This document shows, piece after piece, positions 1,429 through 25,125 of a DNA stretch of 64,000 nucleotides (the stretch's first letter is position 1; the number at the start of each line of letters is the position of its first letter). Location: contig CAWDVO010000022.1 of the NCBI GenBank assembly GCA_963805825.1, positions 79,641 to 143,640 on the forward strand, written 5' to 3'. The DNA comes from Candidatus Brocadiaceae bacterium (GTDB lineage Bacteria; Planctomycetota; Brocadiia; SM23-32). The position numbers and the translations under genes are program-made. The notes beneath the pieces were generated by a model. That model saw nothing but the letters and a program-made list of their open reading frames with translations, had not been told where the DNA came from and ran no database searches.

Positions 1429-1468
1429 GTGCCGCCGCACGCACTTACCACTCTTGGCGAGGATGCGT

Positions 1469-3155: not shown

Positions 3156-3295
3156 CGGGGCTGCCCGTCCGGGGCGTCCGTGCTGAAGCCCAGGCCGCCC
3201 CGGTAGAAGCGGATCGAGACGGCCGTGTCCCGGACGCCGAGGGAGATGATGCTGATGCGCGGCTCCGTGCCGCCCCTCCTGCCGCCCGCCCCCGC

Positions 3296-8904: not shown

Positions 8905-9432
8905 ATGGGAGTTGAGGCCAATGCTGACTCCGGCGACGTCCTGGCCCTCAAGAGGGAAGGCACGCTGCGGGCGAGCGCGATAGGTTCGTGCGTGGTGGTG
9001 GCCGCATACGACCCGGACAGCGGCGTGGGCGGGATGGCGCACGTGATGCTGCCGGGCGCCCCCTGCGGTCCGCGCCACCCGAGGAAGACGATCTACGCCG
9101 AACCGGCGGTGGAAGAGATGATCGGCCGGATGTCGGCCCTCGGTGCGGAGCAGGAGCGCATACGCGCCTGCCTGGTCGGCGGCGGCAACCTGCTGGGTCC
9201 GGGCCACGAGGCCCCCGGCGTCCAGACCGTTGAGTCCCTGAGAGGCACCCTCGACGGACGGGGGATACCGATCATGGCGGAGGACGTCGGCGGAACGCAG
9301 AGGCGCAGTTGCATGATGGACGTGGCCTCCGGACGTGTCGCATACACGGTGGGCGGTTCGGAACAGAAGGAACTCTGGCGGTCCGGCTCCGGCCGGAAGA
9401 CGCCCGGTGACGGTAGTAAGGGGACAGCATGA
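8905..9432 (+). CDS. cheD: CheD-like chemoreceptor glutamine deamidase family protein (orphan)
   Basis: C-terminal 175 aa of ORF 8311..9432 from ATG 8905 (AAGGGGGG SD 5 nt upstream): MGVEANADSGDVLALKREGTLRASAIGSCVVVAAYDPDSGVGGMAHVMLP...CLVGGGNLLG...IPIMAEDVGGTQRRSCMMDVASGRV matches the CheD fold signature (SCV.V..YD...GG.AH.MLP ... GG..R). ATGA overlap with the downstream kinase start. Confidence 0.65.
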   Translation: MGVEANADSGDVLALKREGTLRASAIGSCVVVAAYDPDSGVGGMAHVMLPGAPCGPRHPRKTIYAEPAVEEMIGRMSALGAEQERIRACLVGGGNLLGPGHEAPGVQTVESLRGTLDGRGIPIMAEDVGGTQRRSCMMDVASGRVAYTVGGSEQKELWRSGSGRKTPGDGSKGTA

Positions 9433-12400
9433 AACAGAAGTCCAACGCGGAACTCGTCGAGGAACTCGAACAACTCCGGCGTCGCGTCGCCGACCTGGAG
9501 TCCGAGGGCGGTGCGCACCCGCCGCCCGGGGACGAGCCGGCCGGCAAGAACCGGTACCGCGAGGTCGTCCGAACCTCCATGGCCGGCTTCTGGCTCATCG
9601 ACATGGAGGGGCGGTTCCTCGACGTGAACGCCGCGTACTGCCGCCTGAGCGGCTACAGCCGCGAGGAACTCCTCCGGATGCGTATCCGCGACGTGGAGGC
9701 CATGGAGACGCCCGAAGAGACGGCGCGTCACATAACGGCGATTACCGAAGAGGGTTACGACCGCTTTGAGACAAAACACCGGCGCAAGGACGGGGCGACC
9801 GTCGACGTGGAGGTCAGCGCCAGCCTCTCGGACGTGGAGGACGGCCGGATCGTCGCCTTCGTGCGCGACATCACAAGGAGCAAACGGGCCGAGGAAGAAC
9901 TCACGGCAGCATACCAGCAGCTCCAGGCGAGCAATCAGCAACTGAAGGCCACCGAGCAGCAGCTCCGCGCCTCCAACCAACAGCTCGAGGCGAGCAACCG
10001 GCAGTTGCGTGCGGATGAAGAGGCGCTGCGCCGGAGCGAGACGCTCTACCGCCGCCTGGTCCAGCACCTCCCCCAGCGCATCTTCATCAAGGACCGCAAC
10101 TCGGTCTTCGTCTCCTGCAACGCCAACTTCGCCCACGACAGCGGACTTGAGCCGGAGCAGGTCATCGGGAAGGACGACTTCGCCCTCTACCCGCGCGAAT
10201 TGGCCGAGGCCTACCGGGCCGACGACCGCGCAGTGATGGAGGCGGGACAGCCGAAGGTCATCGAAGAGCCCGTCCCGGCGAGGGGAGAGACGCGCTGGGT
10301 ACACACGATCAAGGTGCCCTTCCACGACGAACGGGGGAACGTGATCGGCGTGCTGGGCATCTTCGAGGACGTCACGGAGCGCAGACAGGCCGAGGAGAGC
10401 GCCAGGCTGCTGGCGACGATAGTGGAGAGTTCCGAGGACGCCATCCTGAGCAAGACCCTCGACGGCGTCGTCACCTCGTGGAACGCCGGCGCCGAGAAGC
10501 TGTACGGCTACCCGGCAGAGGAGGCGGTCGGGCGCCGCATTGCCTTCCTGGTCCCTCCCGACAGGACGGACGAACTCCCCGAGATACTGAGGCGCCTGGC
10601 CAGGGGCGAGCTGGTGGAGCACCTCGAGACCGTCCGGGTGCGGAAGGACGGCACTGTAGTGGAGGTCTCCCTGACCGTCTCCCCGATCAAGGATGAGTCC
10701 GGGGGTGTCGTCGGCGCCTCGTCCATCGCCCGCGACATCACCGAGCGCAAGCGGCGCGAGGAGCGAAACCGCCTGACCCGCGAAGTGCTGGAAGAACTCA
10801 CCCGTCCGGGCACGGCGGCCGATTCGGCCCGCAGCGTCCTTAAGCTGATCGGGAAGGGGCTGGATTTCGAGGCGACGGGCATTCGCCTGCGCGACGGCGA
10901 TGACTACCCCTATTGCGAGACCAGCGGCTTTGACGACGAATTCGTGGAACTCGAGCGGCACCTGTGCGTGCGCGACCGGGCGGGGGACGTCGCGCGCGAC
11001 ACGAAGGGCAACCCCGTCCTCGAGTGCATGTGCGGCAACGTCATACTCGGCCGCGTCGACCCCAGCCTGCCTTTCTTCACCGAGGGCGGGAGCTTCTGGA
11101 CCAACAGCACGACGGAACTACTGGCGTCCACGACGGAAGCGGACCGCCAGGCGCGCACCCGTAACCGGTGCCACGGCGAAGGCTATGAGTCCGTGGCCCT
11201 CATCCCACTGCGGTCGGGCAGTGAGACCGTCGGCCTGCTGCAGCTCAACGATCACCGGTGGGGCAAGTTCACTCCGGAACTGGTCCAGTACCTCGAAGGG
11301 CTGGGCGTCACCATCGGCATTGCCCTCGCCCGCGAGAGGGCTCAGGAGGAACTCGAAGCCGTGGCCAGGTTCCCGTCCGAGGACCCCTCCCCCATCCTGC
11401 GCATCAGCGAGGACGGCAACCTGCTCTACGTGAACCCGAAAGGCGCGGAGCTGCTGACTCACTGGCGCCTGAAGGCCGGTCAGCCGGCCCCGCAGACGCT
11501 GCGCGACGTCGCCGACAGGGCGTTGACGGACGGGACGGCGCAGGCTGTCGAGATCGAGCACGACGGGCGGCTGTACCTGTTCGACGTCGTGCCGCTGGCG
11601 GGCGCCGGCTACGCCACTCTGTACGGGCGCGACATCACCGGACTCAGGCGGGCTGAGGACGCGCTGCGCCGCAGCGAGCGCAAGTTCCGCGCCATGGTGG
11701 AGAACGTGGGCATCGGCGTGGCCCTGATCGCCCCGGACATGCGCATCCTGGAGCTGAACCGCAAGATGCACGACTGGTTCCCGCAGGTCGACACGACGGC
11801 CTACCCGCCCTGCTACAAGGTCATCCAGCACCCTCCGCGCCAGGAGGCGTGCGAGGCCTGCCCGGTCCGGGCGACGCTGGACGACGGCCAGGTCCACGAG
11901 GCCACCAAGCGCCTCGCCACGCCACTGGGGGACCGCATCTTCCGCATCGTTTCCACTCCGGTGCGCAACGACCAGGGCGAAGTCACCGCCGCCATCCAGA
12001 TGATGGAGGACATGACGGACCACCTTTCCATGGAGGACCAGCTTCGCCAGGCCCAGAAGATGGAGGCCGTCGGCCAACTGGCGGGCGGAGTCGCCCACGA
12101 CTTCAACAACCTGCTGACGGGGATCGGAGGGTTCGTGGGCTTCGCGCGCGACGCCGTGGAACTGGGCTCCCCGGCCTACGACGACCTGGGTAAGGTGCTC
12201 GGCCTGGTGGACCGGGCGGCCGCCCTGACCCGCCAGCTCCTGGCGTTCAGCCGCCGGCAGATGCTCGAGCCGGTCGTCCTCGACGTTAACGAACTCCTGT
12301 CCGAGCAGGTCAAGCTGCTGAGGCGCCTGCTCGGGGAGGACATCGACCTGCAGTTCGCGCCGGCGCCCCAACTCCGGAACGTGTGTGCCGACCCCGGCCA

Positions 12401-13172
12401 GATCGAGCAGATAGTCCTGAACCTGGCCGTCAACGCCCGCGACGCCATGCCCACCGGCGGCCGGCTGATCATCGAGACCGCCGACGTCGAACTCAGCGAG
12501 GACTACGTGCGCGAGCACGCCGAAGCGACCGGCGGGCCGCACGTGATGATCGCGATGAGCGACACGGGCTGCGGCATGGACGCGGAGACCAGGCAGCGCA
12601 TCTTCGAGCCCTTCTTCACGACCAAGGAGCGCGGCAAGGGGACGGGGCTCGGCCTTGCCACGGTCTACGGCATCGTGAAACAGCACAACGGCAGCATCCA
12701 GGTCTACAGTGAGGAGGGCAAGGGAACGACGTTCAGGATCTACGTGCCCAGCGTCGGCCGGCAGGCGGAGGAACGGCCGACCCGCACCGAGTTCATCACG
12801 GGAGGGACGGAGACGATCCTGCTGGTGGAGGACGAGGAGGCCATCCGGGCGATCAGTTGCCGGCGTCTGGAACTGCTGGGCTACGACGTGCTCTGCGCCG
12901 CCGGACCCGACGAGGCCGAGCAAATGGCAGCCGAACACGGCGGCCCGCTCGACCTGCTGCTGACCGACGTCGTCATGCCGGGCCGCAACGGCCGTGAGCT
13001 GTATGAGTCGCTGCAGTCCAGGCAGCCCGGCCTCAAGGTGCTCTATATGTCAGGCTACACGGACAAGGCGGTCCTGCGCGACGGCCTGCTGGGCGAACAT
13101 GCGGGCATGCTCCAGAAGCCCTTTGGACAGCACGACCTGGCAGCCAAGGTGCGCCAGGCGCTGGACCGGTAG
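9429..13172 (+). CDS. hybrid sensor histidine kinase: coiled-coil, multiple PAS/PAC domains, Cys-containing GAF-like domain, HisKA, HATPase_c, C-terminal receiver
   Basis: 1247 aa. N-terminal coiled coil plus heptad repeats ([31 protein letters not shown]). Several PAS-like blocks. GAF-like region with CETSGF...CVRDRAG...ECMCGN...[17 protein letters not shown]-box [19 protein letters not shown]-boxes GCGMD and [18 protein letters not shown] domain [11 protein letters not shown]...[18 protein letters not shown]. Confidence 0.85.
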
Positions 13173-13174
13173 CC

Positions 13175-14560
13175 TCAAGCGCGCGTCATCTCCGCGCTCA
13201 ACTCCGGCTGCGGCAGGTAGGCCCCGTTCTCGCGCAGCGTCGTCACCAACCGCGCCGTGTCCAGCTCGCAAGCGGCCCGGCCCGTGGCCAGCGACTGCAC
13301 GGCCGCCGTGCCCGCGGCCTGGCCCATCATCGCCGCCGCCGGCATCACGCGGATGGAGCCGTGTACCTGCACGTCGCTGGAGTTGCAGCGCCCCGCCACC
13401 CACAGGTTCCGCCAGCCCTTCGGCACCAGGATGCCGTACGGTATGCCGTGGCACTCGCCCGGCCCCAGCCGGCCCGTCACGTCGCGCTCGCGCAGGTGGC
13501 GCTCCCACTCCTCGTCCGAGCAGTCGTAGATGTGGATGTCCACGAACTTGTTGAAGACACCGATCTGGTCCGGGAACTGCCGGCGCGCAAGGTAGTCGTC
13601 GACCGTCAGCTGGTACTCGCCCACGATGCGGCGCGACTCCCGCACGCCCATCAACGCCCCGGTGCCTACGCACTGCAGCCCCTCGCAGCCCGGAACGTGC
13701 TTCCGGAGGAACTCCACGAACTCCTGCACGAGCCGTCGCCCCTGCGCCATGCCCTCGCTCAGGTCCCGGCAGCGGCAGGCGTTCAGGCCGAAGACGTGCC
13801 CCCCGTTCAGGTAGCCCACGCCGCCGGAGACCGGGCTCATCCCGGGCAGATGGCGGTCGAACTGCGTGAACTCGCCCGCCGACAGGGCCCTGCAGTATTC
13901 GTTGTACACGTTGACGCCGCTCGCCCGCACCGCGGCCCAGTCGATGTTCGCGTGGAGGGACGCCAGGGTGGCCGGCATGATGTCCTCGGTGTCCCGCCCC
14001 GCTTCCCGGTAGGCCGCCCCGCAAAGCGCCGAGAGCACGGCGTCGCCGGTGGCGTCGATGAACGCGCGGGCGGGCACGTAGCGGTAGCCCTCGATGTTGT
14101 GCAGCACGACCCCGCCGACGCGGCCCTCCTCGGCCGCGGCGTCGGCGTCGATCACGCGCGTGAAGAAGCGCACCTCCACCCCGCTCCCGGCGGCCAGCTC
14201 GTCGAGGAGCAGCTTCAGCCCCTCGCCGCTGAACTGCGTCCAGCGGTGGTAGTGCTTCCGCCACGTGTCAGGCTGCACGCCCTCGGCCACGAAGCCGCGC
14301 TCGTGTAGCGTCTCGACCAGCTCGCGCATGAACCCGCCGACGAGCATCCTCTCGCCGTCGGCCATCGGGTCGAAGGCGTTGACCATGCCGGAGGTGCCCA
14401 TGCCGCCCAGGCACCCGGTCTGCTCGACCAGCAGCACGTCCGCCCCCAGCCGCGCCGCGCAGATGGCCGCCGCGCTCCCCGCCGGCCCGCCCCCGGCCAC
14501 GACGAGGTCATACTCCCGATCCACGGCGACATCGCGCACCAACTTGAAGGTCTCAGCCAT
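13175..14560 (-). CDS. FAD-dependent oxidoreductase (FAD_oxidored/PF12831-like)
   Basis: 461 aa: MAETFKLVRDVAVDREYDLVVAGGGPAGSAAAICAARLGADVLLVEQTGCLGGMGTSGMVNAF. Rossmann GxGxxG dinucleotide-binding motif. Antisense ORFs 13050..14264 and 13361..14308 are shadows. Confidence 0.75.
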   Translation of the reverse strand: MAETFKLVRDVAVDREYDLVVAGGGPAGSAAAICAARLGADVLLVEQTGCLGGMGTSGMVNAFDPMADGERMLVGGFMRELVETLHERGFVAEGVQPDTWRKHYHRWTQFSGEGLKLLLDELAAGSGVEVRFFTRVIDADAAAEEGRVGGVVLHNIEGYRYVPARAFIDATGDAVLSALCGAAYREAGRDTEDIMPATLASLHANIDWAAVRASGVNVYNEYCRALSAGEFTQFDRHLPGMSPVSGGVGYLNGGHVFGLNACRCRDLSEGMAQGRRLVQEFVEFLRKHVPGCEGLQCVGTGALMGVRESRRIVGEYQLTVDDYLARRQFPDQIGVFNKFVDIHIYDCSDEEWERHLRERDVTGRLGPGECHGIPYGILVPKGWRNLWVAGRCNSSDVQVHGSIRVMPAAAMMGQAAGTAAVQSLATGRAACELDTARLVTTLRENGAYLPQPELSAEMTRA

Positions 14561-15270
14561 CAGCTCTCTCTCCGTGTTGACGCGGCCCTGGCCCTCCCTG
14601 CAGCGCGGCCCATCATAGCCCCGTCGCCGGCGCCGAGCTCAACGCCCCTGCCCGTGGTCTCCGCGTCGACACCCCCGCCTTGCGCGGCACCTTCGGCACC
14701 CACCTCATCGGGACCTATGGAGGCAGTATTGCGCTCTTGCCCCCCTCCCGTGGACCCTGAGCCAGAAGCGCGCCTCGCCTCCGCGTAGCAGAAGCGCGTC
14801 TGGAAACTCAGGAAGCCATGCGGGCCGGGTTGCACGGGAGGCAGCCCGGTCTCCGCCCAGACCTCCTTGCTGAATCCCACGAACCCGCCCGTCTCCGCAC
14901 CCCGAAGCTCCCATTCGTCGCCCACCACCCGCTTGGTGAACTCGGCACTTTCGCCCGCTGTGGGGTTCACCGGCCCGACGTCGTCGAATTCCGCCGGCGG
15001 GTCCAAAGGACGACCGTTAACTTGGTTCACCATGAAGACGGGCAAGGCAGCCTTCTGCGGAAGCGGTGCCGTCCAGATCCCGCGCACGGTGGCGAGTTCG
15101 CCGAGCGGCAGGCCAAGTCTGCCGACAACCTTCACCCGCTCGGGGATATCGCTCCAGCGCACCACCCGTAGCTGCTCCTTCTGCCCACAGCCGGTTGAGA
15201 TCGACGCCAGAAGCACCAGCAGACACGCAGCAGCCAACCCAGCCAACATGCGTGAGGTGGGCAGGATCAT
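14560..15270 (-). CDS. putative lipoprotein of unknown function (signal peptide with LASISTGC lipobox); disordered Gly-rich tail
   Basis: 236 aa, MILPTSRMLAGLAAACLLVLLASISTGCGQ... Stop overlaps the oxidoreductase start by 1 nt (operon). The C-terminal 70 aa are low-complexity G/A/R-rich and may be partly spurious. Confidence 0.5.
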   Translation of the reverse strand: MILPTSRMLAGLAAACLLVLLASISTGCGQKEQLRVVRWSDIPERVKVVGRLGLPLGELATVRGIWTAPLPQKAALPVFMVNQVNGRPLDPPAEFDDVGPVNPTAGESAEFTKRVVGDEWELRGAETGGFVGFSKEVWAETGLPPVQPGPHGFLSFQTRFCYAEARRASGSGSTGGGQERNTASIGPDEVGAEGAAQGGGVDAETTGRGVELGAGDGAMMGRAAGRARAASTRRES

Positions 15271-15370
15271 TCCGGTGCCCTCCTGTGCTCGATTCCGCCG
15301 AACGCCGAGACCGGGCCCTGCCGCATAGCATACAAAGAGGACCGACGGTATGCCAACCAGGTCCTTGAGC

Positions 15371-15500
15371 CAGAACGGTCTCCCAGTTCATCCGGAGCCA
15401 CATGCGCCAGGCCCCGTTCTCGCCGGAGAGTCCACAGACTCCTGTCCATGGAAGAGAGCGCAGCCGCCTGCCGGAGACAACCGAGACGATGTCGTCGAAC
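15371..15500 (+). repeat. copy 1 (most diverged, with indels) of a ~150-bp intergenic repeat family
   Basis: GCCCCGTTCTCGCCGGAGAGTCCACAGACTCCTGTCCA aligns to copies 2 and 3 (GCCCCGTTTCTGCCGGAGCTTCCACAGACTCGAGTCCG and GCCCCGTTTCCGCCAGAGTTTCCACAGATTCCTGTCCA). A conserved minus-frame peptide motif VCG.SG.NGAW.M..W is present in all three copies. Confidence 0.5.
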
Positions 15501-15556
15501 TGGTCCATCGAAGCCATCAAGGCGCGCTGAACAGGTACATCGCCCAGCCCAGGCAG

Positions 15557-16270
15557 TCACGCCCCCATCGCAGGTAGCCGTCTCGGCCCTTGCGCGCGGT
15601 ATCGAGGAGTGCGTCCGAGTCCGGATCGTCGGGATGGGCTGCCGCGTACGCGTTCGGCAGCCTGCCACTGCAGTCCCTCGTACCTGTCCCAATCGTCCTC
15701 AGAGGAGACGATGGAGTACAGGAATGTAAGACCCAGGTCCACACCGGCCCGGACGTTGCTCGCGTGAGAGCCGAACGACTCGGCCTCCTGTCCGGTCAGC
15801 TTCAGGTATTCCGGCTCCGGGGGAACCTTCCAGAACGGCTCACCCGCGAGCACGAGACCGCCCGGCCTCACCATCTTGCTCAGGGCCTCGAGCGTTCTCT
15901 TGTGCCCCCCATAGACCCAGGAGGCGCCGATGCACGAGGCCATGTCCAGGCTCTCCTGTCGGTCCGGCTCATACTGGCCCCCGTCCATGTTCAGCAGATC
16001 GATACGATCCGTGAGCTGCCGGGCGGCGACGTTCTTCCGCGCTTCCTCGAAGGTGACGGGAGACAGGTCGAGCCCGGTGCCTGTCACCTCGTAGCGTTCC
16101 GCGACGAGGCAGAGAAACTCGGCCTTACCACAGGCCACGTCCAGGACCCGCCCCCCGTCAGGCAGGCGCAGGAGGTCGACGAGTTCCCTGGTCTTGGCCA
16201 GGCTCATCGGGTTCATGATCGTATGGTCGGTGTGGGTGATGCCGAAGTACTTCCACATGTCCATGTCCAC
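15557..16270 (-). CDS. class I SAM-dependent methyltransferase
   Basis: 237 aa; motif I VLDVACGKAE, post-I LDLS, motif II MVRPGGLVLAGE. The C-terminal 30 aa (R/G/P-rich) look like out-of-frame read-through, so a 3' frameshift is possible. Confidence 0.7.
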   Translation of the reverse strand: MDMDMWKYFGITHTDHTIMNPMSLAKTRELVDLLRLPDGGRVLDVACGKAEFLCLVAERYEVTGTGLDLSPVTFEEARKNVAARQLTDRIDLLNMDGGQYEPDRQESLDMASCIGASWVYGGHKRTLEALSKMVRPGGLVLAGEPFWKVPPEPEYLKLTGQEAESFGSHASNVRAGVDLGLTFLYSIVSSEDDWDRYEGLQWQAAERVRGSPSRRSGLGRTPRYRAQGPRRLPAMGA

Positions 16271-16374
16271 GGGTGGGTCCTTTCATCGTTGTCCGGCACT
16301 CGTCGCGACAGAGCCGCCGGAGTCGGCCGACCTCAAGTAGCCGTCGGCGCCGCCATCTTACCACCACCAGATCC

Positions 16375-16529
16375 TCATCCACCATGCCCCGTTTCTGCCG
16401 GAGCTTCCACAGACTCGAGTCCGTTCCTGGCGAGGCAGGCACGCTATGGCACGGAGCCGCCCGAGACGGAGGATAGGCGGGGTCCGCCTTCGCGCAAGGC
16501 TACGGCGGACGAAAGTCAGAAGCCCGCGG
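16375..16529 (+). repeat. copy 2 of the ~150-bp repeat family, followed at about 16595-16650 by a degenerate tRNA 3'-half-like segment
   Basis: About 85% identical to copy 3 over about 140 bp. Downstream GCGTGGAGCGG...GTGAAATTCGAAC...GACGTCCAGC is collinear with the GCGTGGAGCGGGCGAGGGGATTCGAACCCCCGACGTCCAGC segment after copy 3. Confidence 0.55.
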
Positions 16530-16715
16530 CCGGGGCGCAGATAAGGACTGCTGGCACGGCCGGACGCTGGATGGCACGAGAAAGCGTGGAGCGGTCGACG
16601 GGACTCGCCGGGCGGCGAGTGAAATTCGAACTTCATCCGCCTGCCGGCGGACCGCGACGTCCAGCGTCTTTCTCTTGGCGCCGTGATTGGTGCGCCTCCC
16701 CTTGCTCCCCGGGCT

Positions 16716-17048
16716 TCAGGGAGGCGAGCTGCCGTGACGCCTCTGTTCTGTGGCTCTGCGTTCCGAAACGAGGTACCACCCAAGCGCTGCGATGAACAGG
16801 ACGAAGGTGATACCGCCCCCGATGAGGACCTGATGGAGCCGGGACTGCGCTTCGTCGTAGACGGCTCTGTCCACCTGGTAGAGCTTTCCGTGGTTGTTGA
16901 TCACGTGCCGCCCGTCTTTCGTGACGTACGGCACGCCATGGCCGTAAGGCGCGACGAAGGTCCAGTATCCATACATGCCGAGCAGGCCCGGCAGTAGCGC
17001 CACCCACGCGAGCAACAGCAGGATCACGAAACGAGTCGGTGCTTTCAC
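16716..17048 (-). CDS. hypothetical small membrane protein (2 TM)
   Basis: 110 aa: MKAPTRFVILLLLAWVALLPGLLGMYGYW...GGGITFVLFIAALGWYLV. Hydrophobicity only; it sits in a repeat-rich, gene-poor stretch. Confidence 0.3.
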   Translation of the reverse strand: MKAPTRFVILLLLAWVALLPGLLGMYGYWTFVAPYGHGVPYVTKDGRHVINNHGKLYQVDRAVYDEAQSRLHQVLIGGGITFVLFIAALGWYLVSERRATEQRRHGSSPP

Positions 17049-17100
17049 TTCTGCCTGACCTCCAGAGGACCCACCGGCGACGCTCCTCCGTGTGCCCGAA

Positions 17101-17424
17101 TCAGTGCAAGAGGATGACCATCAGAAGAACGACCATGAACAGCGTTGATGAAATGGCCGAAAACAGGTAGAGCGGGAGCCACGCGTGGAGGTATTCGTCA
17201 ACGCCCATGCGGCGAATCCGGCCCGAGCTGCGCAGCAACGACCCGGCTCGGCGGTCGCCCTTCGCCCTTCTCTTTTGGACCCACGTCAAGTAGAGGTAGT
17301 AGAGCCACAACGATGCCCAAATGACTGCACATCCGGCAGCAAACGTGAGCAACATGTCGTGACGTGACATCCATATGACTGCACATCCAGCAGCGAACGT
17401 AAGCAACATGTCGTGAGGTGCCAT
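17101..17424 (-). CDS. hypothetical small membrane protein containing an internal 18-aa tandem duplication
   Basis: 107 aa with HDMLLTFAAGCAVIW repeated twice. Caused by a 54-bp tandem duplication at the DNA level. May be spurious. Confidence 0.2.
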   Translation of the reverse strand: MAPHDMLLTFAAGCAVIWMSRHDMLLTFAAGCAVIWASLWLYYLYLTWVQKRRAKGDRRAGSLLRSSGRIRRMGVDEYLHAWLPLYLFSAISSTLFMVVLLMVILLH

Positions 17425-17428
17425 CGGG
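17321..17428. repeat. 54-bp tandem duplication (2 copies, about 6 mismatches)
   Basis: ATGACTGCACATCCGGCAGCAAACGTGAGCAACATGTCGTGACGTGACATCCAT at 17321-17374, followed by ATGACTGCACATCCAGCAGCGAACGTAAGCAACATGTCGTGAGGTGCCATCGGG at 17375-17428. Confidence 0.7.
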
Positions 17429-17582
17429 AAGGCCCCGTTGCTGGTACCCGCGAGAAGTGACTGGACTTCGGTTAGGGCAGATGCCCATTCTCCTCAGTAT
17501 AGGCCCTTCATTGTGCTTCTGGCAAGCAGGCAGGGCGTGGCACCGCTGCGACTCGAAGGCCAAGACAGCTTCATCCAGAACT

Positions 17583-17707
17583 TCATCCACCATGCCCCGT
17601 TTCCGCCAGAGTTTCCACAGATTCCTGTCCAGCCCTGGCGCTGCTGGCACACTATGGCACGAAGGCGGCCGACACGGCGAGTTGGAGGAAGAGTCAGAAG
17701 CTCGCGG
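17583..17707 (+). repeat. copy 3 of the ~150-bp repeat family, immediately upstream of the tRNA-Gly 3'-half remnant
   Basis: TCATCCACCATGCCCCGTTTCCGCCAGAGTTTCCACAGATTCCTGTCCAGCCCTGGCG...CTATGGCACGAAGGCGGCCGACACGG...AGTCAGAAGCTCGCGG aligns with copy 2. Confidence 0.55.
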
Positions 17708-17755
17708 GGGTGGCCCACTTAGGCCACTGCTGTCACGTCCTGGCAGGTAATGGCG

Positions 17756-17806
17756 TGGAGCGGGCGAGGGGATTCGAACCCCCGACGTCCAGCTTGGGAA
17801 GCTGAC
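17756..17806 (-). tRNA. tRNA-Gly(CCC) 3'-half fragment (anticodon stem-loop through CCA), not a complete gene; att-site-like remnant
   Basis: Minus strand reads GTCAGCTTCCCAAGCTGGACGTCGGGGGTTCGAATCCCCTCGCCCGCTCCA. It matches E. coli tRNA-Gly(CCC) 3' half (AGCTTCCCAAGCT...GGGTTCGATTCCCTTCGCCCGCTCCA) nearly base for base. No complementary 5' acceptor strand (GCGGGCG) or D-arm upstream, so the cloverleaf cannot be completed. Confidence 0.6.
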
Positions 17807-18227
17807 GAGCGATGCCCCTAAGACACGACACAGGGCAGGCTTACAACTTACGTGCATGCCGTTTCCGCCCCCGTTTCCGCAACGCTTTGGGGTAACCGTT
17901 GGTCAGCGTGACGAGCGCGTCGGATGAGGAGGCCTGAATCGGTTTGGGCCCGGTCAGATGACCGCCCGCCAGGCACAGGTACAGGCGTCAAACTTGATTG
18001 CGATCAGCTGCTCCGAGCGCCTGGCAGTCACGACGCTCGGGCAACTGGCAGGTCAGACTGTCCGGGTTGCACAAGCAGAGCCGAAGGCTTGATCGCAACC
18101 CTTGCGCTGCAGAGACAGGCGGCCTCAAGGGAGCTTTGGCCCCAACTCTGTGCTCCGTGCCGGACCCGCGCGCGTCATAGGTCTGGGCGTCCCGCCACTT
18201 CCACCGGCTTCGTAGGCTCCTTGAGCA

Positions 18228-19640
18228 GGAGATACTCTTGAATGTTGTTGACGGAGGGAGGTGAGCGTATCTTTCGGGGAATGTCGCATTCGTTTCCCTG
18301 AGAGGCTCTCGCCAGAGGGCCAAGGAAGGATACGCTCGATGGGCAAGGATAGCGTGGTGGAGCTGCGAAAGCGAGTGGAAGCCGAGTCCAGGTCCACCCT
18401 GGACGAGACCCTGAGGCGGGGAGCCGAGCGCATGCTCCAGGTGGCGATCGAGGCGGAGGTGGCCGGCTATGTCGAGCGCCACGCCGCCCTGGTTGACGAC
18501 GAGACGGGCCGCCGCCTGGTGGTCCGAAACGGCCATCAGCGGGAGCGCACGATCCAGTCAAGCCTCGGCGAGGTACTGGTCACCAAGCCGCGCGTGCACG
18601 ACCGGCGTGAGGGCGAAGGGTTCACCAGCAGCATCCTGCCTCCCTACCTGCGTCGCACGCCGGCGCTGGAGGCGCTGATCCCCATCCTCTACCTGAAGGG
18701 CGTCTCGACCAACGACTTCCCCGAGGCGCTCTCGGCCATCCTGGGCCAGAATGCGGCCGGGCTCTCGGCCAGCACCGTGAGCCGCCTGAAAGACGTGTGG
18801 CAAAGGGAGCACGAGGAATGGGCGGGGCGCGACCTTACGGGCAAGCGCTACGTCTACTGGTGGGCGGACGGCGTCCACTTCAAGGTGCGCCTCACGGACG
18901 AGCGCCCGTGCCTGCTGGTCATCGTGGGCACGCTCGAAGACGGCACGAAGGAGCTGGTGGCCATTCAGGACGGGGAGCGGGAGAGCACTCTTTCCTGGCG
19001 GGAGCTCTTGAGGGAACTGAAGCGAAGGGGCATGGCCCAGGCCCCTGCCCTGTGCGTTGCGGACGGCGCCCTGGGCCTGTGGGCGGCGATGGCCGAGGAA
19101 CTGCCGGCGGTCAAGGAGCAGCGCTGCTGGGTGCACAAGACGGCCAACGTGCTCGACAAGATGCCGAAGAAGGTGCAGCCGGCCGCCAAACGCCTCATCC
19201 AGGAGATGTACATGTCGTCCACCAGGGCAGCCGCGCTGGAGGCTTACGAGGAGTTCCTGGCGCTCTACGAGGCGAAGCACCCGAACGCCTGCGCGTGTCT
19301 GAAGAAGGACAAGGACGTGCTCTTCACCTTCTACGACTTCCCGGCCGAGCACTGGAGACACTTGAGGACGACCAACCCGATCGAGAGCACCTTTGCCACC
19401 GTGCGGCACCGCAGCCGCCAGACGAAGGGATGCGGCTCGCGAGCGGCCACCTTGGCAATGGTTTTCAAGCCGGCGCGGGAGGCCGAGAAGACCTGGCGTA
19501 AGCTCAACGGCTACGAGCTGATCGCGAAGGTCATCCGGGGTGTGCGATTCGAGGACGGTGTGGAGGCGCGAGAGGCCGCGTAAACGGAGAGCCCGAAGGG
19601 TGCGCCAACACCTCCATCAACAACATTTGACAGTATCTCC
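18228..19640 (+). mobile_element. IS256-family insertion sequence, complete, with imperfect ~30-bp terminal inverted repeats and flanking direct repeat
   Basis: Left end GGAGATACTCTTGAATGTTGTTGACGGAGG (18228-18257). Right end CCTCCATCAACAACATTTGACAGTATCTCC (19611-19640), about 26/30 complementary. Flanked by direct repeat CTCCTTGAGCAGG (18217-18229 and 19637-19649), consistent with an 8-9 bp TSD partly overlapping the IR ends. Confidence 0.8.
18339..19583 (+). CDS. IS256-family (Mutator-like) transposase
   Basis: MGKDSVVELRKRVEAESRSTLDETLRRGAERMLQVAIEAEVAGYVERHAALVDDETGRRLVVRNGHQRERTIQSSLGEV...WWADGVHFKVR...LVAIQDG...CWVHKTANVL is characteristic IS256 transposase sequence, about 414 aa. The track ORF starts at 18261; the in-frame ATG at 18339 was chosen. 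Confidence 0.85.
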   Translation: MGKDSVVELRKRVEAESRSTLDETLRRGAERMLQVAIEAEVAGYVERHAALVDDETGRRLVVRNGHQRERTIQSSLGEVLVTKPRVHDRREGEGFTSSILPPYLRRTPALEALIPILYLKGVSTNDFPEALSAILGQNAAGLSASTVSRLKDVWQREHEEWAGRDLTGKRYVYWWADGVHFKVRLTDERPCLLVIVGTLEDGTKELVAIQDGERESTLSWRELLRELKRRGMAQAPALCVADGALGLWAAMAEELPAVKEQRCWVHKTANVLDKMPKKVQPAAKRLIQEMYMSSTRAAALEAYEEFLALYEAKHPNACACLKKDKDVLFTFYDFPAEHWRHLRTTNPIESTFATVRHRSRQTKGCGSRAATLAMVFKPAREAEKTWRKLNGYELIAKVIRGVRFEDGVEAREAA

Positions 19641-20626
19641 TTGAGCAGGGCCAGTGCCCGGTACAGGATCGGGTCTTCGCGAGGCAGTTCCAGAGGAGTG
19701 GTGGGGACGTGCACGTCAGGCTGTATCCCGCGCCCCTCGAAGCACGTCCCGTCCAGAAGCAGCGCCTGCCAGCAGGGCAACATGACGGTGACGCCGTTAC
19801 AGAGCGCGTAGGGCTGCGGGTTGCCAGAACTGCCGTATGAGGTCTCGCCCACGAGTACCAGCCGCGCACTCGCCTCATCATCAATAAGAAAGCCTCACTA
19901 CTGCTCCTGGTCGCCTGCCCCATGAGCACCGCGGTCTGGGCGCCGTAGTGCGGCCGGCCCCGTGTCGGCGCCAGCACTCTGTCCCATGGTGTGCTGAAGC
20001 CCGAACTGGCGCACGGGTCGCGTAGCTTGTGCCGCGCATAGACGACAGGCTCTCGCACAAAGCACCCAGCGAAGTGTTTGGCCACATCCTCCGAGCCGCC
20101 GCCATTGCTGCGCACGTCGACAACCAAGCCGCCCCCTTGCGAGAAGTTGTTGAGAGCCTCGAATGCGGGCTCCAACTCGAGGACTCTGTCCGCAGACCAA
20201 GTGCCTATCATGACGTACCCGATACCGTCTCCGAATCTGCCGACATAAACGCAAGGACTCGGGTGCGACCACTCGGCGGCGGCCCGCCTAAGAGTCTCAA
20301 GGTTGTAGTTGGGGACCACGTCCGGAGCGAAGCTCAGGAACGTCTCGCCGTCGACCTTCAGCGAGATGTGGGGGTCTCTGGCGTGCCCCAGGAGCAGGGC
20401 CGCCGCCCTCGCGAAGGCGTAGGGGGAATCAGCCCAAAGCAGGGACGCTGAATGCTCTTCGAAAAGACCGGCCCAGTCCAGGGAGTGAAGGCGATAGTAA
20501 GAGTATGAGTAATCAACTATGTCCTTCAGTTGGGCGGCGGCCGCCGTGTTGCGGGCACGACATCGGGCGATGTCGCGAAAGGAGGCAACCACTGCCCCGA
20601 TGCGGGTCCGGAGGTACCTGGCAGCA

Positions 20627-21058
20627 TCATTCATCCGAAATCCGGATCTGCCCCTCGAGGGATCTTACCAGATCTCGCCTAAACTCGGCGGCCGCCTTGC
20701 ACTTGCCGTGCCACAGCCAGTCGTGGAAGTGGAACTTCTCTGGACATTCCGGATTACTACACGCACGTACAGGGAAGTCCCGACAGACCTTGGGCCGCAC
20801 GTCATAGATTACGCAGAATGCCTTGCCATCGCGATGGTCCAGAAACGGGCACTCCTCTTTGCGCCACGGCTCATCCCCGTTGTCCGGATCGATCAGACGC
20901 CCACAGCACGGACAGATGTCCTTGAGCACGTCTTCCCTGCCGAGAGAGCGCCATCGTTCAATGTCGTCGCGGTGCACCATGTTGCGCAGCCATGCACCAC
21001 CTTTGCAGCACGACCCGCAGCGCTGGCATTTCCATGACAAGTCTGCCTTCGTTCTCAT
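20627..21058 (-). CDS. YkgJ-family CxxCxxCC (PF03692-like) zinc/iron-chelating cysteine-cluster protein
   Basis: 143 aa: MRTKADLSWKCQRCGSCCKGGAWL... with C-x2-C-x2-CC plus further Cys/His (CPCCGRL, CPF, CSNPEC). 8-nt overlap with the downstream S41 start; 24 nt after the B12-rSAM stop. Confidence 0.6.
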   Translation of the reverse strand: MRTKADLSWKCQRCGSCCKGGAWLRNMVHRDDIERWRSLGREDVLKDICPCCGRLIDPDNGDEPWRKEECPFLDHRDGKAFCVIYDVRPKVCRDFPVRACSNPECPEKFHFHDWLWHGKCKAAAEFRRDLVRSLEGQIRISDE

Positions 21059-21082
21059 TGCGGGGCGCTCCAGTGAGTTAGG

Positions 21083-22837
21083 TCACACCATGACAATGGC
21101 AGCTAAGTTGTCTTCACACTTCCTGTAGGTTCGCATGCACAGAGCTGCTGCCCGGTCGCGACCGCCAGGGTCACCGGCACTCAACCGGTCAGCGATCTGC
21201 TCGAAGGTAAGCTTCCCCGCGAAGTAGCGGTAGCACTCCCTTTCCTCCGCGGTGAGTTCGAACGCTTTCGGCGAACGCTCGTTGATGACAAAAGAGTCGT
21301 TCCAGGCGGAAAGGGTGTTCCCGTCAGCTCGCACGGGCGCGCACGCCATCAGACGTTCTGCCAACACTTCGGACAGAAAGCGATGGTCCTTGCGGCGCCT
21401 ACGTGTGACGATGTCCTCCACGTGGCGAAAGCGCCAGAGCTGCCTGACAATGAGGGACAACATCTGGCGTTCGGACGCAAGTACCACGAACTCCTTGAGT
21501 TCTGCAGCCGTTAGGAACGAGCATGCCTTGTCGAAGCTGTATCTCGATACCTCGTCCTTGAACAGGGTGACGAGCTGCTCGACCTGATCGCGCGACAGCT
21601 CGGAATTCCCCCCAAAGCAGTCCCTCGCAACAGTCCCCGTCACAAAGTCGTCATCCAGAAGCTCAAGGCCCCACGCTTCGGCGTTCTCCCTGAACTCTGT
21701 GCCGGGGAAAGGCGTAAGGGCCGAGACCTCAAGTTCAATCCGCCCGGGCGCCAAGTCCACAAGGCGCTTGGCGAACTCTATGTCACCGCGCACGTCTTCC
21801 TCCGTCTGCCCGGGTAAGCCGCATATAAAGGCCCCAAACACCGTAGGCACGGCAGCTTCGCTGCACTGGCTCACGACGGCCGTGATCTGCTCGACTCGCG
21901 TCTGCTTGTTCATCCGATCCAGCAGCGCCTGGCTGCCCGATTCGATGCCGATCTGCAGGCGCACAAGCCCTGACGCCTTCATCCGCCGGACTAGCTCAGG
22001 GTACTTCGCCAAGACGTTCACCCGGCCTTCGCAGTAGAACCCGAAGCGCGACTTGTCCGGGAACAGGCGGTCCATGATGTCGCAAACGGAATGGACCCGC
22101 TCGGGCGAGACAGTGAAAGTGTCATCGGCGAAGCTCAGATACAGCGCCCCCGCTGCATACCTGTTCTCGAAACGCCGCAGCTCGGCCTCGACCTGAGCCA
22201 TGCCAAGGGGCCGGTACCCGTGAGTCTTCCGGCCCTCACTGCAGAAGTGACAGGCATAGAGGCAGCCACGAGATGTCACTACGGAGGCCATATAGGGCGC
22301 GTCTTCGTCCAGCAATGAGTAATCCGGCAACGGAATGCACGCCACGTCTGAATATGGCCCGAAGTCCACCGGGGTCGACCGCGTCTTGCCATCCTGGACG
22401 TAAGTCAGGCCAGGTATCGCCGGCAAAGTGCCCTCGTCTTCGAGGAGATACCGGGCCAGCAGCAGCATGGGGTACTCTCCCTCCCCCCGCACCACGATGC
22501 GCCTTTCGGTGGCGTATGGCTCTGCCATGCAGGTCACGTGGGGGCCGCCCAGCACCACCGTGACTTGCGGGAACTCCGCCAAGACACTGTCACTCAAGCG
22601 CACGACACGGAAGATGTTGTCGCTGTCGCAGGTGAAACCCACGAGGCAGCGCTCTGTCCCGTCGACGGCTTGCTCGACATCAGGCCACGAGAGGTCATCG
22701 AGCTGTAGGTCGAACACAATTGTCGGAATGCCGTGGTCGCGCAGGACGCTACCGAGGTACAAGAGGCCAAGCGGTGGGCGTATGGCCCCACCACGACTAG
22801 GAAAGCGCACCGGCGCATTGACCAGTATTACCTGCAT
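21083..22837 (-). CDS. B12-binding (class B) radical SAM enzyme
   Basis: N-terminal cobalamin-binding-like domain (MQVILVNAP...GLLYLGSVLRDHGIPT...VVLGGPHVT) followed by radical SAM core CLYACHFC (C-x3-C-x2-C) and TIM-barrel motifs (LQIGIESGSQALLDRMNK). Start at internal ATG 22837 chosen to avoid a 78-bp overlap; the track start is 22924. Confidence 0.7.
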   Translation of the reverse strand: MQVILVNAPVRFPSRGGAIRPPLGLLYLGSVLRDHGIPTIVFDLQLDDLSWPDVEQAVDGTERCLVGFTCDSDNIFRVVRLSDSVLAEFPQVTVVLGGPHVTCMAEPYATERRIVVRGEGEYPMLLLARYLLEDEGTLPAIPGLTYVQDGKTRSTPVDFGPYSDVACIPLPDYSLLDEDAPYMASVVTSRGCLYACHFCSEGRKTHGYRPLGMAQVEAELRRFENRYAAGALYLSFADDTFTVSPERVHSVCDIMDRLFPDKSRFGFYCEGRVNVLAKYPELVRRMKASGLVRLQIGIESGSQALLDRMNKQTRVEQITAVVSQCSEAAVPTVFGAFICGLPGQTEEDVRGDIEFAKRLVDLAPGRIELEVSALTPFPGTEFRENAEAWGLELLDDDFVTGTVARDCFGGNSELSRDQVEQLVTLFKDEVSRYSFDKACSFLTAAELKEFVVLASERQMLSLIVRQLWRFRHVEDIVTRRRRKDHRFLSEVLAERLMACAPVRADGNTLSAWNDSFVINERSPKAFELTAEERECYRYFAGKLTFEQIADRLSAGDPGGRDRAAALCMRTYRKCEDNLAAIVMV

Positions 22838-22845
22838 AGACACGA

Positions 22846-24078
22846 TCAGTTCGCTTTCCGCATGACACGAACGGCCAGCAGCACTGAAAGCCCAACCACG
22901 ACGACTGCTGCGCCCAGTCCCCACGGCAGCCAGTTCCCGGCCGGCGCAACTGGGACAGCGGCAACCGGCGCAGCACGGGGTTCTCGGACTTCAGCCGGCC
23001 CGCCCTCGGGCGTGTGCGTGAAGGACTTCGCTGGCAGCGCCGCTGGGGCACCGGCACCGGCAGAGGAGCTAGCAACCTCCAGGAGCGCGCCAGGGCGTGG
23101 CTCCAGGACCGCGTCTGTCCTGTCTCTTGCCGCGGCCAGGAGTTGCTTTGCTGTGCCGGCCATGTGGTGGGTGGGGAACCGGGCCAAGTAGGTCTCGAAC
23201 CATCGCGCTGCCTCCGAGTATAGTCCCGCATGGAACGCCGTCTCCCCAAGCCGGTAATAGAGGGCCGCCAATGCCGGATCGACCCGGTTGTCGCGCAGTT
23301 CCGATTCGGCGACAACGTCAAACTCATACAGCCGCAAGCTGCCAGGCTCCTGCACGATCCCGGGTGTCTCCAGCGGGAAGAAGTAGGCGGCCCGACATAT
23401 CCAATCCCTGTTCCTATAGGACCGGATCAGCTGCCGCTCCCCTTCCATGAAGCCCGCTCGATCGCTCTTGTATTTCGTGAGGTAAACTTCGAGCAGTTGG
23501 CCCAGGAACAGCGATTGCTGCACTTGCCAGTCCTCCGTTCCGCCCTGCGATGCCTCTTCCAGCAAAGCGTTCCCCGCCGACAGAATGCTCAATGCCGTGC
23601 TGTCTGAACCAAGTCGGACTGCAGTCCGGGCATTTTGCAACAGCATGCGCCCCGCAGAACCGCACTCCTGCGACAGAGCAGTCCCCCCTCCCTCCACCAG
23701 GCCGGCAACGGTCTTGCTGCATTCAGCCAGTTCAGCAATGTGCTTCTGACGTAGCGCAGCCAAAGCGGCCCCGCTGGCTGCTGCCGTCTGGAGGTCACGG
23801 ACATGGTCGAGCTGCGCCGCCAGCTCCCCATACTGCAGCAATTTCAGATGCTGCACCGTCTCGTCCTGCGTTCCGCCGGTCGAAAGTTCGCCGATCTTCG
23901 TCATTTGGCGGGTAATGAGTTCTGCCGCCTCGCCAAGACGTCCGCCTGCGATCAGTTCGACAGACTGTCTCCGGGTCTGGAACATCTGCCCCACAAGCTC
24001 TCTCGCGGTCTCGGCGGATGCCGTTACGCAGAGCGACACGACTACCGCGATGGCTACAGGAATGCACCGCCGTTTCAT
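22846..24078 (-). CDS. membrane-anchored periplasmic protein with N-terminal signal peptide, TPR-like helical region and C-terminal TM anchor
   Basis: 410 aa. MKRRCIPVAIAVVVSLCVTASA signal. TPR-like YYRLGETAFHAGLYSEAARWFETYLARFP. C-terminal WLPWGLGAAVVVVGLSVLLAVRVMRKAN. Confidence 0.55.
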   Translation of the reverse strand: MKRRCIPVAIAVVVSLCVTASAETARELVGQMFQTRRQSVELIAGGRLGEAAELITRQMTKIGELSTGGTQDETVQHLKLLQYGELAAQLDHVRDLQTAAASGAALAALRQKHIAELAECSKTVAGLVEGGGTALSQECGSAGRMLLQNARTAVRLGSDSTALSILSAGNALLEEASQGGTEDWQVQQSLFLGQLLEVYLTKYKSDRAGFMEGERQLIRSYRNRDWICRAAYFFPLETPGIVQEPGSLRLYEFDVVAESELRDNRVDPALAALYYRLGETAFHAGLYSEAARWFETYLARFPTHHMAGTAKQLLAAARDRTDAVLEPRPGALLEVASSSAGAGAPAALPAKSFTHTPEGGPAEVREPRAAPVAAVPVAPAGNWLPWGLGAAVVVVGLSVLLAVRVMRKAN

Positions 24079-24094
24079 CTGTCACCTCCTCCTT

Positions 24095-25045
24095 CTACGC
24101 TGTGAAACAGACGGCAACTATCGCGCTCCCAATCACGCCTGTCGTCAGATTCGCGACCGTCGGGTCATCGTCCGCGCCGCAGCTATGAGTATAACACGAG
24201 TCGAAGTCAATGCCAAGTAAACAGCCGTCACTCGGACCGCATACGTTTGAAGTCCCACATGTGTTGCTTGCAGGCTTCCCGCACGTGTTCGTTGGCTCAC
24301 AGAAGTCCTTCTCGCAGTAATTCGTAACGTTGCAGGAATTCTTGAGTTCACACTCGTTGTCGTCCATGCAGACGTTCTCATCGTCGCATGAGTTCAGTCC
24401 CCAGCAGTGATCTCGAGTCGCGCAGGCATTAGCAGCTTCACAGTTGTCCGTGCCACCGCACAGATCATAGTCACACTGATCTGTCGAGGAACACGTGTCC
24501 GTTCCACTACAAGCGTTAGTGCCCGCGCAGATGTCTGACACGCAATTGTCATTGACCCAGCATGTATTGTAGCCCTTGCATCCGTCGCTGCTCTGGCAGT
24601 AATCGGTCGCGCAGTTGTTGCTGCTGCCTGTGCATGTGTCATATGCCTGGCAGTGATCGTCCTTCCCGCAGTCATTACGTCCCTGACAATAGTCACCGCT
24701 GGCACACGAGTCGTTCGTGTTGCACGTGTTCGTGACAGTGCAGGTGTTGCTCGTCGTACAATTATCCGTCGTCTCGCATGTGTTGTAAGTGCAGTTGTTT
24801 GTGCCGGAGCACACATTGGACGCGTTACATGTGTTCGTCGTACACGTCTTCGTTACCAAACACGTGTCAGAGCTGGTGCACGTGTTTGAGCCGCACGTAT
24901 AGGTTGGAGTACAGTTACAGTCTGCATCGGCTGCCCTCGGAGCCACGCCGCTGCCAACCAGCATGAGCCCTCCGACAGCCAGCGCCGTCTGCCCTACTGA
25001 GACGAGGAAACGCCGCCGACTACTCCGGTTCTCGTTCCGCTCCAT
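24095..25045 (-). CDS. Tat-signal cysteine-repeat protein: about 43 Cys arranged as about 40 consecutive C-x4/5 repeats rich in T/N/D/S; candidate substrate of the adjacent radical SAM/SPASM enzymes
   Basis: 316 aa. MERNENRSSRRRFLVSVGQTALAVGGLMLVGSGVAPRAADA is a twin-arginine signal. Then CNCTPTYTCGSNTCTSSDTCLVTKTCTTNTCNASNVCSGTNNCTYNTCETTDNCTTSNTC... continues for about 260 aa with Cys every 5-6 residues. About 18 C-x3-D and several C-x3-N motifs. Ends in a hydrophobic tail TVANLTTGVIGSAIVAVCFTA. Confidence 0.7.
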   Translation of the reverse strand: MERNENRSSRRRFLVSVGQTALAVGGLMLVGSGVAPRAADADCNCTPTYTCGSNTCTSSDTCLVTKTCTTNTCNASNVCSGTNNCTYNTCETTDNCTTSNTCTVTNTCNTNDSCASGDYCQGRNDCGKDDHCQAYDTCTGSSNNCATDYCQSSDGCKGYNTCWVNDNCVSDICAGTNACSGTDTCSSTDQCDYDLCGGTDNCEAANACATRDHCWGLNSCDDENVCMDDNECELKNSCNVTNYCEKDFCEPTNTCGKPASNTCGTSNVCGPSDGCLLGIDFDSCYTHSCGADDDPTVANLTTGVIGSAIVAVCFTA

Positions 25046-25125
25046 AAGTCACCTCCCTTTGGCATTTGGCTCAGCCTTGGCCGAGGCAGCGGTGCTGGCC
25101 GCGACCGATGCTGTTACTCAGTGGC

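Follow-up and report, generated by a model that had tools for sequence, protein, structure and literature searches.

Within the 64-kb stretch of DNA analysed here (contig CAWDVO010000022.1, positions 79,641 to 143,640; hereafter the window), the segment from about 14.6 to 17.8 kb can be explained, with a probability of roughly three in four, as a tandem array of attachment-site (att) junctions. The junctions would derive from mobile elements whose tyrosine integrase specifically targets the 3′ part of tRNA-Gly(CCC). In the proposed order each unit would start with a recombination core (tRNA anticodon stem to CCA), followed by an arm of about 180 nt (P′ arm) and then by cargo, and the 12-nt repeats found in the arm are presumed binding sites of the integrase N-terminal domain or of an excisionase. 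Later elements would have inserted into the core carried by the preceding element (tandem accretion), and integrase, excisionase and most other DNA would then have been lost by deletion. The leftovers would be three units of about 1 kb, carrying two membrane-protein genes (unit a), a methyltransferase gene (unit b) and a lipoprotein gene with a possible scrap of an integrase (unit c).

Partial tRNA-Gly(CCC) genes and arm copies

An original prediction made from the DNA letters had described a decayed integration hotspot, with the 3′ half of tRNA-Gly(CCC) at 17756-17806 on the minus strand, no 5′ half and no intact tRNA at the locus. Base-by-base reading bore out this partial gene, here named core 3, which corresponds to tRNA positions 26-76 and comprises the anticodon stem-loop, the variable loop, the T-arm, the acceptor 3′ strand and CCA. 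On the minus strand it starts with G26, the anticodon stem TCAGC/GCTGG and the loop TTCCCAA (anticodon CCC) and continues with the variable loop ACGTC, the T-arm GGGGG-TTCGAAT-CCCCT, the acceptor 3′ strand CGCCCGC, the discriminator T and CCA. The DNA upstream of it (catcgctc) forms neither a D-arm nor an acceptor 5′ strand. Core 3 is 95.7% identical over 46 nt to the intact tRNA-Gly(CCC) of a Planctomycetales metagenome-assembled genome (MAG; L023), and 91-96% identical to the intact tRNA-Gly(CCC) genes of L138, L115, L107 and other loci. ARAGORN found no tRNA in the 64-kb window and an Rfam scan of the window returned nothing at the gathering threshold, both in agreement with the predicted lack of an intact gene; the Rfam tRNA model matched core 3 only partially (21 bits, cutoff 29). 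Neither a second copy of the 27-mer of the core nor another canonical T-loop occurs in the window.

Core 3 is followed by one of three repeat copies, which all lie on the minus strand as direct repeats (15387-15448, 16362-16586 and 17570-17755) with spacings of 975 and 1208 bp. Their number and common orientation, as given in the original prediction, were recovered by repeat scan and alignment. The predicted length of about 150 bp holds for copies 2 and 3, but not for copy 1, which is about 60 nt long, consists of the distal, tandem-repeat part and has no core. Copy 3 was delimited by repeat scan, by alignments and by comparison with a sister strain and with integrase relatives (see below). 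It contains TGCCAG/TGACAG motifs, a tandem 12-nt repeat CTGTGGAAACT/CTGGCGGAAACG at about 17597-17620 and a second tandem repeat TGGTGGATGAAG/TTCTGGATGAAG at 17569-17592. Copy 2 has its tandem repeat at about 16389-16412. Copies 2 and 3 align over 103 nt at 81.6% identity (E 1e-23) and over a further 95 nt at 68% (E 1e-4), the latter alignment covering the 3′ part of the second core and the spacer and thus reaching back to the tRNA piece. Copy 1 aligns with copy 2 over 56 nt at 77% (E 3e-6) and with copy 3 over 62 nt at 79% (E 1e-9). No further copy exists elsewhere in the window, exact-pattern scans for the repeat core in genome, metagenome and viral contig collections gave no match, and blastn of the repeat against phages and plasmids matched the tRNA part only.

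The degraded tRNA segment predicted to follow copy 2 is real, but reading and alignments give its span as 16587-16665 (minus strand) instead of 16595-16650. This core 2 retains GCTGGACGTCG, GTTCGAAT and CCCGTCGACCGCTCCA, is interrupted by two hairpin insertions and lacks the anticodon 5′ stem as well as the loop. Counting the 29-nt hairpin insertion at 16483-16509 in the arm, the copy 2 region contains three small GC-rich hairpin insertions (the others at 16601-16619 and 16636-16651), all absent from copy 3. Two of the three have the stem TCCGCC…GGCGGA in common, and only these two such hairpins occur in the window.

The letters of the W-rich minus-strand peptide motif, which had been predicted as conserved, are present in all copies. 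The frame has no conserved start or stop, ends in copy 2 after about 20 codons, and coincides with the 12-nt DNA repeats. The W-rich "peptide" is thus an artefact, namely the translation of TGG-containing tandem 12-nt repeats. A reading of the repeat as the N-terminus of an XRE-type helix-turn-helix protein ('SLWKLRQKRGM') was likewise dropped, since the frame is not consistently open and the tandem DNA repeats together with the arm comparison account for the conservation. A relationship to a known family of repetitive extragenic palindromic (REP) sequences or miniature inverted-repeat transposable elements (MITEs) found no support either, as the repeat scan detected inverted repeats neither inside the copies nor at their flanks, and dispersed copies were absent from the window and from the three public collections searched. 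No Rfam family matched the repeat at the gathering score.

A sister strain with another element joined to the same core

A 45-kb contig (ENA ERZ25039500 contig_13849, 45,293 nt, here L083) was reached via the B12-radical SAM protein encoded in the window, which has a 100%-identical partial match on it. Window positions 25547-17569 are colinear with L083 at 99% identity, the IS256 element included. Identity is 100% through core 3 and for a further 32 nt past CCA (17724-17755). Beyond these 32 nt it falls to about 74% over the remaining arm, and L083 thus contains a fourth, diverged version of the repeat. The alignment ends at …CTGGATGAA, the same point where the window copies lose mutual similarity. 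Past the arm, L083 carries cargo unrelated to that of the window, followed by a 451-aa tyrosine integrase (PF00589, 2e-18; phrog_1, 2e-44) and an excisionase (HTH_17; TIGR01764, 2e-8), which are located 2.3-4.2 kb from the core. The comparison therefore shows two nearly identical strains with different elements joined to one core. It is indirect evidence that integration or excision by the integrase may take place at this core, as the two strains are 99% identical and differ from 33 nt after it. Judged by this comparison, core 3 looks still usable. The term "decayed" fits the three units of the window, while in the sister strain the site as such still appears to be used.

The stretch of L083 between P′ arm and integrase (15180-17060) holds three cargo genes, one of the TIGR04255 family and the others without a family, and may represent a small accessory or defence module. 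The same contig encodes phage portal, capsid, cement and head-tail joining proteins. Its homology to the window ends at window position 25547 (L083 6923), inside the radical-SAM open reading frame (ORF) 25126-26322, with the phage structural genes beyond. Position 25547 constitutes a second strain-specific junction.

Integrase relatives and the layout of the arm

Relatives of the L083 integrase were fetched together with their loci (n=83). In about 60 of the 83 an intact tRNA is present, which nearly always is convergent (on the opposite strand) and located 200-300 bp past the integrase stop codon. An excisionase homologue is usually encoded on the integrase strand, and ahead of the integrase in most loci. 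Among those with an adjacent tRNA or core, the nearest relatives (60-66% identity) are associated with tRNA-Gly with the anticodon CCC or TCC. The integrase of L085 (66% identity) lies at a core that is 95.7% identical to the window core; L107 (64%) as well as L091 and L092 (60%) are associated with tRNA-Gly(CCC), and L089, L090 and L094 with tRNA-Gly(TCC).

In the relatives inspected, the stretch from tRNA to integrase consists of a terminator hairpin, then TGACAG/TGCCAG-type motifs and then a tandem 12-nt direct repeat. This repeat (TTGGTGCAAGCG, two or three times) is found 140-166 nt from the tRNA end in six relatives when located by motif position, and a tandem-repeat scan of 16 relatives placed it at about +135 to +150 in most. 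The corresponding positions are +137/+149 in window copy 3 and +139/+151 in L083 (CTGGCAGAAAC, twice). Position and period hence match between window, L083 and relatives, whereas the motif sequences differ, as is expected for arm-type sites that co-evolve with their integrase. On the basis of this layout match the repeat is read as the integrase-proximal (P′) arm of an attachment site, and not as a peptide gene, a MITE or an RNA.

In many relatives (L089, L094, L107, L115, L118, L125, L138, L139 and others) the annotated integrase ORF runs through the P′ arm into the antisense strand of the tRNA, giving rise to 'LAPTLAPT' tails (…LAPTLAPT…GLEPSTSSLGS). These over-extended gene calls are probably annotation artefacts.

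Junction type around core 3

Upstream of core 3, at a distance of 62-74 nt, a pair of arm-type motifs (GCGGAAACG-GGG-GCGGAAACGG, 17857-17882, minus strand) forms a flank resembling a P arm. Both window and L083 have two copies of the motif (GCGGAAACG) at -62/-74. In the attP-type relatives L119 and L103, where a core fragment lies by the integrase, an arm motif is also found upstream of the core, at -78 or -90, while attL-type relatives, which have an intact tRNA, showed no arm motif upstream of the tRNA. With arm motifs on both sides, core 3 is therefore flanked by element-type DNA (P-O-P′). This suggests that core 3 is a P-O-P′ junction between elements, and not what is left of a resident tRNA gene at this exact position. 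A P-O-P′ layout is that of a junction between two tandem elements or of an unrecombined attP, and it would explain why no 5′ half is present at core 3. An intact tRNA, if it has not been lost, should be located beyond the window at higher coordinates.

Cargo of the three units

All cargo genes of the array are encoded on the minus strand. Unit a, the only unit bounded by two recognisable cores, contains two small membrane-protein genes (17101-17424 and 16716-17048) delimited by ORF and family searches. No curated Pfam cutoff was passed and no NCBIfam or PHROGs match was obtained for either gene; for 17101-17424 there were two Pfam matches below the cutoff (ATP-synt_I, BPD_transp_2). The gene 17101-17424 has a sigma-70-like -35/-10 pair, read by eye, which lies outside the repeat. 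Its first 18 codons are duplicated in tandem (54 bp, 89% identity, 17317-17424; MAPHDMLLTFAAGCAVIW / MSRHDMLLTFAAGCAVIW).

Unit b (15518-16327) consists of a gene for an S-adenosylmethionine (SAM)-dependent methyltransferase (15518-16270), which has a +1 frameshift at 15649, and about 57 nt of its own upstream DNA. Relatives of the methyltransferase share 70-91% amino-acid identity (72-89% on the DNA level) across loci L003-L082, and their MAG labels include Armatimonadota, Pirellulaceae, Actinomycetes, Thermoleophilia, Lentisphaerae, Myxococcota and others. The contexts of these loci are unrelated to one another and to the window; synteny of the neighbouring genes with the window was tested and none was found. 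P′ arms were not seen at the methyltransferase loci elsewhere. The extent of unit b follows from DNA homology to the closest locus (L003, Armatimonadota, 89%), which runs from 15451 to 16327, leaving 3 nt to repeat copy 1 and about 40 nt to copy 2. At 15451-15517 (minus strand) this homology covers the start (about 20 codons) of a further gene, located after the methyltransferase in L003 and truncated in the window by copy 1. As the homology block stops at the repeat borders, these borders are real junctions.

About 7 of the 49 methyltransferase loci that were scanned include a tRNA or tmRNA at a distance of up to 3 kb, among them L023 (tRNA-Gly(CCC) at 650 bp), L026 (tRNA-Asn at 570 bp) and L007 (tmRNA/SmpB). 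The methyltransferase gene, which shows wide transfer between phyla, looks like frequent island cargo.

Unit c carries a lipoprotein-like ORF (14560-15270, minus strand) with a signal peptide and lipobox, of which the first ~160 codons look real and the tail is of low complexity. Antisense to this tail, a possible remnant of integrase box II was detected at 14653-14706 on the plus strand (RVDTPALRGTFGTHL compared with VDLHALRHTFGTHL, 18-19 residues). The match is weak (tblastn E 0.086), and in a search of the six translated frames of the window with a hidden Markov model of the integrase family it was the best match (E 0.013). Apart from this scrap no integrase was detected by the model in any of the six frames, nor was an excisionase homologue found in the window. 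The original prediction had proposed a search for integrase genes nearby; none exists within the 64 kb, and an integrase and an excisionase are present on the sister contig. In view of the missing integrase and excisionase, the degraded core 2 and the lack of a core in unit c, the three units, which share one orientation, are integrase-less remnants, and we read them as decayed, tandemly accreted elements.

Pfam, NCBIfam and PHROG searches gave no informative matches for the cargo proteins. Exact-protein look-ups of the window methyltransferase and of a flavin adenine dinucleotide (FAD) oxidoreductase of the window returned no match, and the context of an FAD-oxidoreductase homologue (L167) had no useful synteny.

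Neighbouring segment and composition

On the other side of core 3, the segment shared with L083 at 99% identity (17807-25547, minus strand) encodes an S41 peptidase, a CxxCxxCC protein, the B12-radical SAM protein, a tetratricopeptide repeat protein and one other protein, and in L083 it is bounded on its far side by phage structural genes. Into this segment an IS256-family insertion sequence (18227-19641, plus strand) has inserted, with inverted repeats of 31 nt and the target duplication TTGAGCA(GG). This simple insertion lies at a distance of 420 bp from core 3 and is shared by L083. The possibility that IS256 had split the tRNA gene was rejected, as the target duplication marks a simple insertion and no 5′ half lies beyond it.

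The G+C content of third codon positions (GC3) is 0.89-0.96 for the genes between 1241 and 14560, except for a doubtful ORF at 8311-9432 (0.74), and about 0.60-0.81 from 14.6 to 60 kb, IS256 excepted. IS256 and an IS630-like transposase (60723-61781) belong to the high class (0.89-0.96), which is also matched by the phage genes of L083 (0.85-0.95). Tetranucleotide usage places 1394-14560 together with the phage block of L083 (r 0.88) and the array together with the 25-60 kb region (r 0.83-0.84). The end of the array, at about 14.6 kb, therefore coincides with a real boundary in composition (GC3 from ~0.76 to 0.96). The composition of the region and its flanks, proposed earlier as a point of comparison, thus showed a switch in both measures at the array end. 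The suggestion that IS256, the S41 gene and the radical-SAM DNA are located on or next to an island agrees with our data, as the segment is shared with a contig holding portal, capsid and head-tail genes. Serial site-specific integration at tRNA-Gly, the central claim of the original prediction, is supported by the L083 polymorphism, the tRNA-linked integrase family, the arm layout and the switch in composition.

Two further observations were made in the window. Positions 1016-1393 are 93% identical to L083 306-684, where a terminator-like hairpin and the first part of a gene for 63 aa lie just before the phage portal gene. The window has the beginning of this phage gene joined in frame to the ORF of an SNF-family transporter (1241-3067), at the left edge of the high-GC3 block. 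At 39992-42155 (minus strand), the GspD-type secretin of a type II secretion operon is broken into two ORFs that overlap, with Secretin_N three times in one and Secretin in the other, which suggests a frameshift, due either to a pseudogene or to a long-read sequencing error.

Alternative explanations

Several observations weigh against the interpretation as a decayed array of attachment-site junctions. Intact tRNA-Gly, integrase and excisionase are all absent from the 64-kb window, and three arms are accompanied by one good and one degraded core. The upstream arm motifs are direct in the window and inverted in L119 and L103. The three closest relatives of the L083 integrase (L084, L087 and L088, 64-75% identity) have no tRNA core in the 0.7 kb inspected past the integrase stop codon or in their whole loci, the L083 integrase itself is tied to core 3 by family association only, and it is located 2.3 kb from the arm and not adjacent to it. 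Furthermore, all four arm versions lose similarity at one point (…CTGGATGAA), which is not predicted by random deletion alone.

The last point would also fit a live site, in which core 3 with its two arms is a functional attP-like (P-O-P′) dock within a larger mobile element or prophage and an integrase like that of L083 moves the integrase-less units in trans as cis-mobilizable cassettes. Core 3 is indeed intact and 100% conserved between the strains while the DNA after it differs, arm motifs flank it on both sides, and L083 combines phage portal, capsid and head-tail genes with integrase and excisionase on a single 45-kb contig. In L083, and possibly in unit c, cargo separates the arm from the integrase, and methyltransferase cargo occurs in many phyla. 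We nevertheless consider this reading as a whole unlikely, because core 2 is too degraded for recombination, unit c has no core, the far ends of units a and b show no P-arm motif, the window has no integrase, and the methyltransferase is frameshifted and elsewhere lacks such arms. A broader proposal would treat the ~1-kb units as a cassette-like system, in which a resident tRNA-Gly integrase would act in trans to capture and shuffle single genes that are bounded by a tRNA-fragment core and a P′ arm. Such a system is decidedly improbable here because core 2 is non-functional and the units have no far-end arms.

Two further explanations were considered. Local duplication of a ~1.2-kb segment beside a broken tRNA gene, by unequal crossing-over or slippage, with later replacement of the genes and without any site-specific recombination, would account for clustered copies in one orientation with similar spacing (975 and 1208 bp). 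This is very hard to reconcile with the divergence of the copies (18-30%) given 99-100% identity of the two strains in the surrounding DNA, with unrelated DNA between the copies, with a fourth version attached to an integrase-bearing element in L083, and with a layout that matches integrase-adjacent arms in unrelated metagenomes. Hardly any credence is given to the repeat as a cis-acting RNA or small Trp-rich leader peptide upstream of each gene, or as a MITE/REP family. Each copy does end 50-150 nt upstream of the start of a minus-strand gene, and the W-rich frame is seen in all of them. However, Rfam gave no match, start and stop are not conserved, conservation is concentrated in the tandem 12-nt DNA motifs, neither inverted repeats nor dispersed copies (in the window or three public collections) were detected, and the promoter-like -35/-10 pair of the gene 17101-17424 lies outside the repeat. 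For the decayed array of tRNA-Gly junctions, the comparisons show the anatomy of the locus, the strain polymorphism, the association of the integrase family as a whole with tRNA genes and the matching position of the arm repeats; the order of events, the binding of proteins to the 12-nt repeats and the place of the intact tRNA beyond the window, or its loss, are inferred.

Relation to known systems

tRNA genes are common hotspots of integration in bacteria. The sublocation class of tRNA attachment sites that extends from the anticodon stem to the 3′ end reportedly originates with Williams in 2002. The locus resembles the tRNA attachment sites of prophage and island tyrosine integrases (lambda-type attP with core and arm-type sites) in its core from anticodon stem to 3′ end, in the directly repeated short motifs about 140-165 nt from the core, in the integrase-excisionase module of the sister strain and in the partial tRNA repeats that mark element ends. 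It differs in that the window has no integrase, in that arm motifs instead of an intact tRNA are found on both sides of the core, and in that binding to the motifs is presumed. As to membership in this class, core and arm are present and the integrase/excisionase pair is so in part, in the sister strain only; no intact tRNA was found at the proximal island end, neither in the window nor in L083, and besides core 3 the window has only the second, degraded partial copy. The mechanism is an ordinary one, consisting of tyrosine-integrase recombination at a tRNA 3′ core, tandem accretion and decay, and no new mechanism emerges.

cis-mobilizable elements (CIMEs) are described in a review (PMC5704250, citing Pavlovic 2004 and Bellanger 2011) as decayed integrative and conjugative or integrative and mobilizable elements that keep their att sites and have lost their integration genes. 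Integrase-less tandem units in one orientation, with copies of att core and arm between them and next to a site used by another element, resemble CIMEs and their tandem accretion. Unlike CIMEs, the units described here are only about 1 kb in length, have a single intact core and lack conjugation or mobilization genes. Repeated integration at one tRNA or tmRNA site, by which older elements are pushed inward, has been reported for the tycheposon islands of Prochlorococcus (bioRxiv 10.1101/2020.12.28.424599) and the ssrA islands of Dehalococcoides (PMC3146451). Partial tRNAs, fragmented integrases and strain-variable cargo are shared with these islands, whereas the host lineage (PVC-like, i.e. 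Planctomycetota-Verrucomicrobiota-Chlamydiota, and GC-rich) and the integrase family differ and the seeding intact tRNA was not seen here. With integron cassette arrays (IntI, attI, attC) the locus has in common single-gene units in one orientation, a repeated recombination-type element between them and one gene that occurs across phyla. In contrast to integrons, the repeat scan found no attC-like inverted repeats in the copies and the repeat contains a tRNA fragment. The integron reading was rejected, as the L083 integrase scored 27 bits against a TIGR02249 cutoff of 265 and inverted repeats are missing within the copies.

Biological meaning

If the improbable cassette-like system were true, it would amount to a platform for gene capture, similar to an integron and based on a tRNA attachment site, and could help to explain the spread of methyltransferase-type cargo across phyla. 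The favoured interpretation, the decayed array of tRNA-Gly junctions, marks the locus as a strain-variable integration hotspot in an uncultured, GC-rich bacterium that probably belongs to the PVC group. It also defines the layout of the attachment site for a family of tRNA-targeting integrases that is widespread and known mostly from metagenomes, with a tRNA 3′ core and a P′ arm whose tandem 12-nt repeats lie about 140-165 nt away. This layout could help to annotate island borders and to tell attL-type from attP-type junctions in MAGs.

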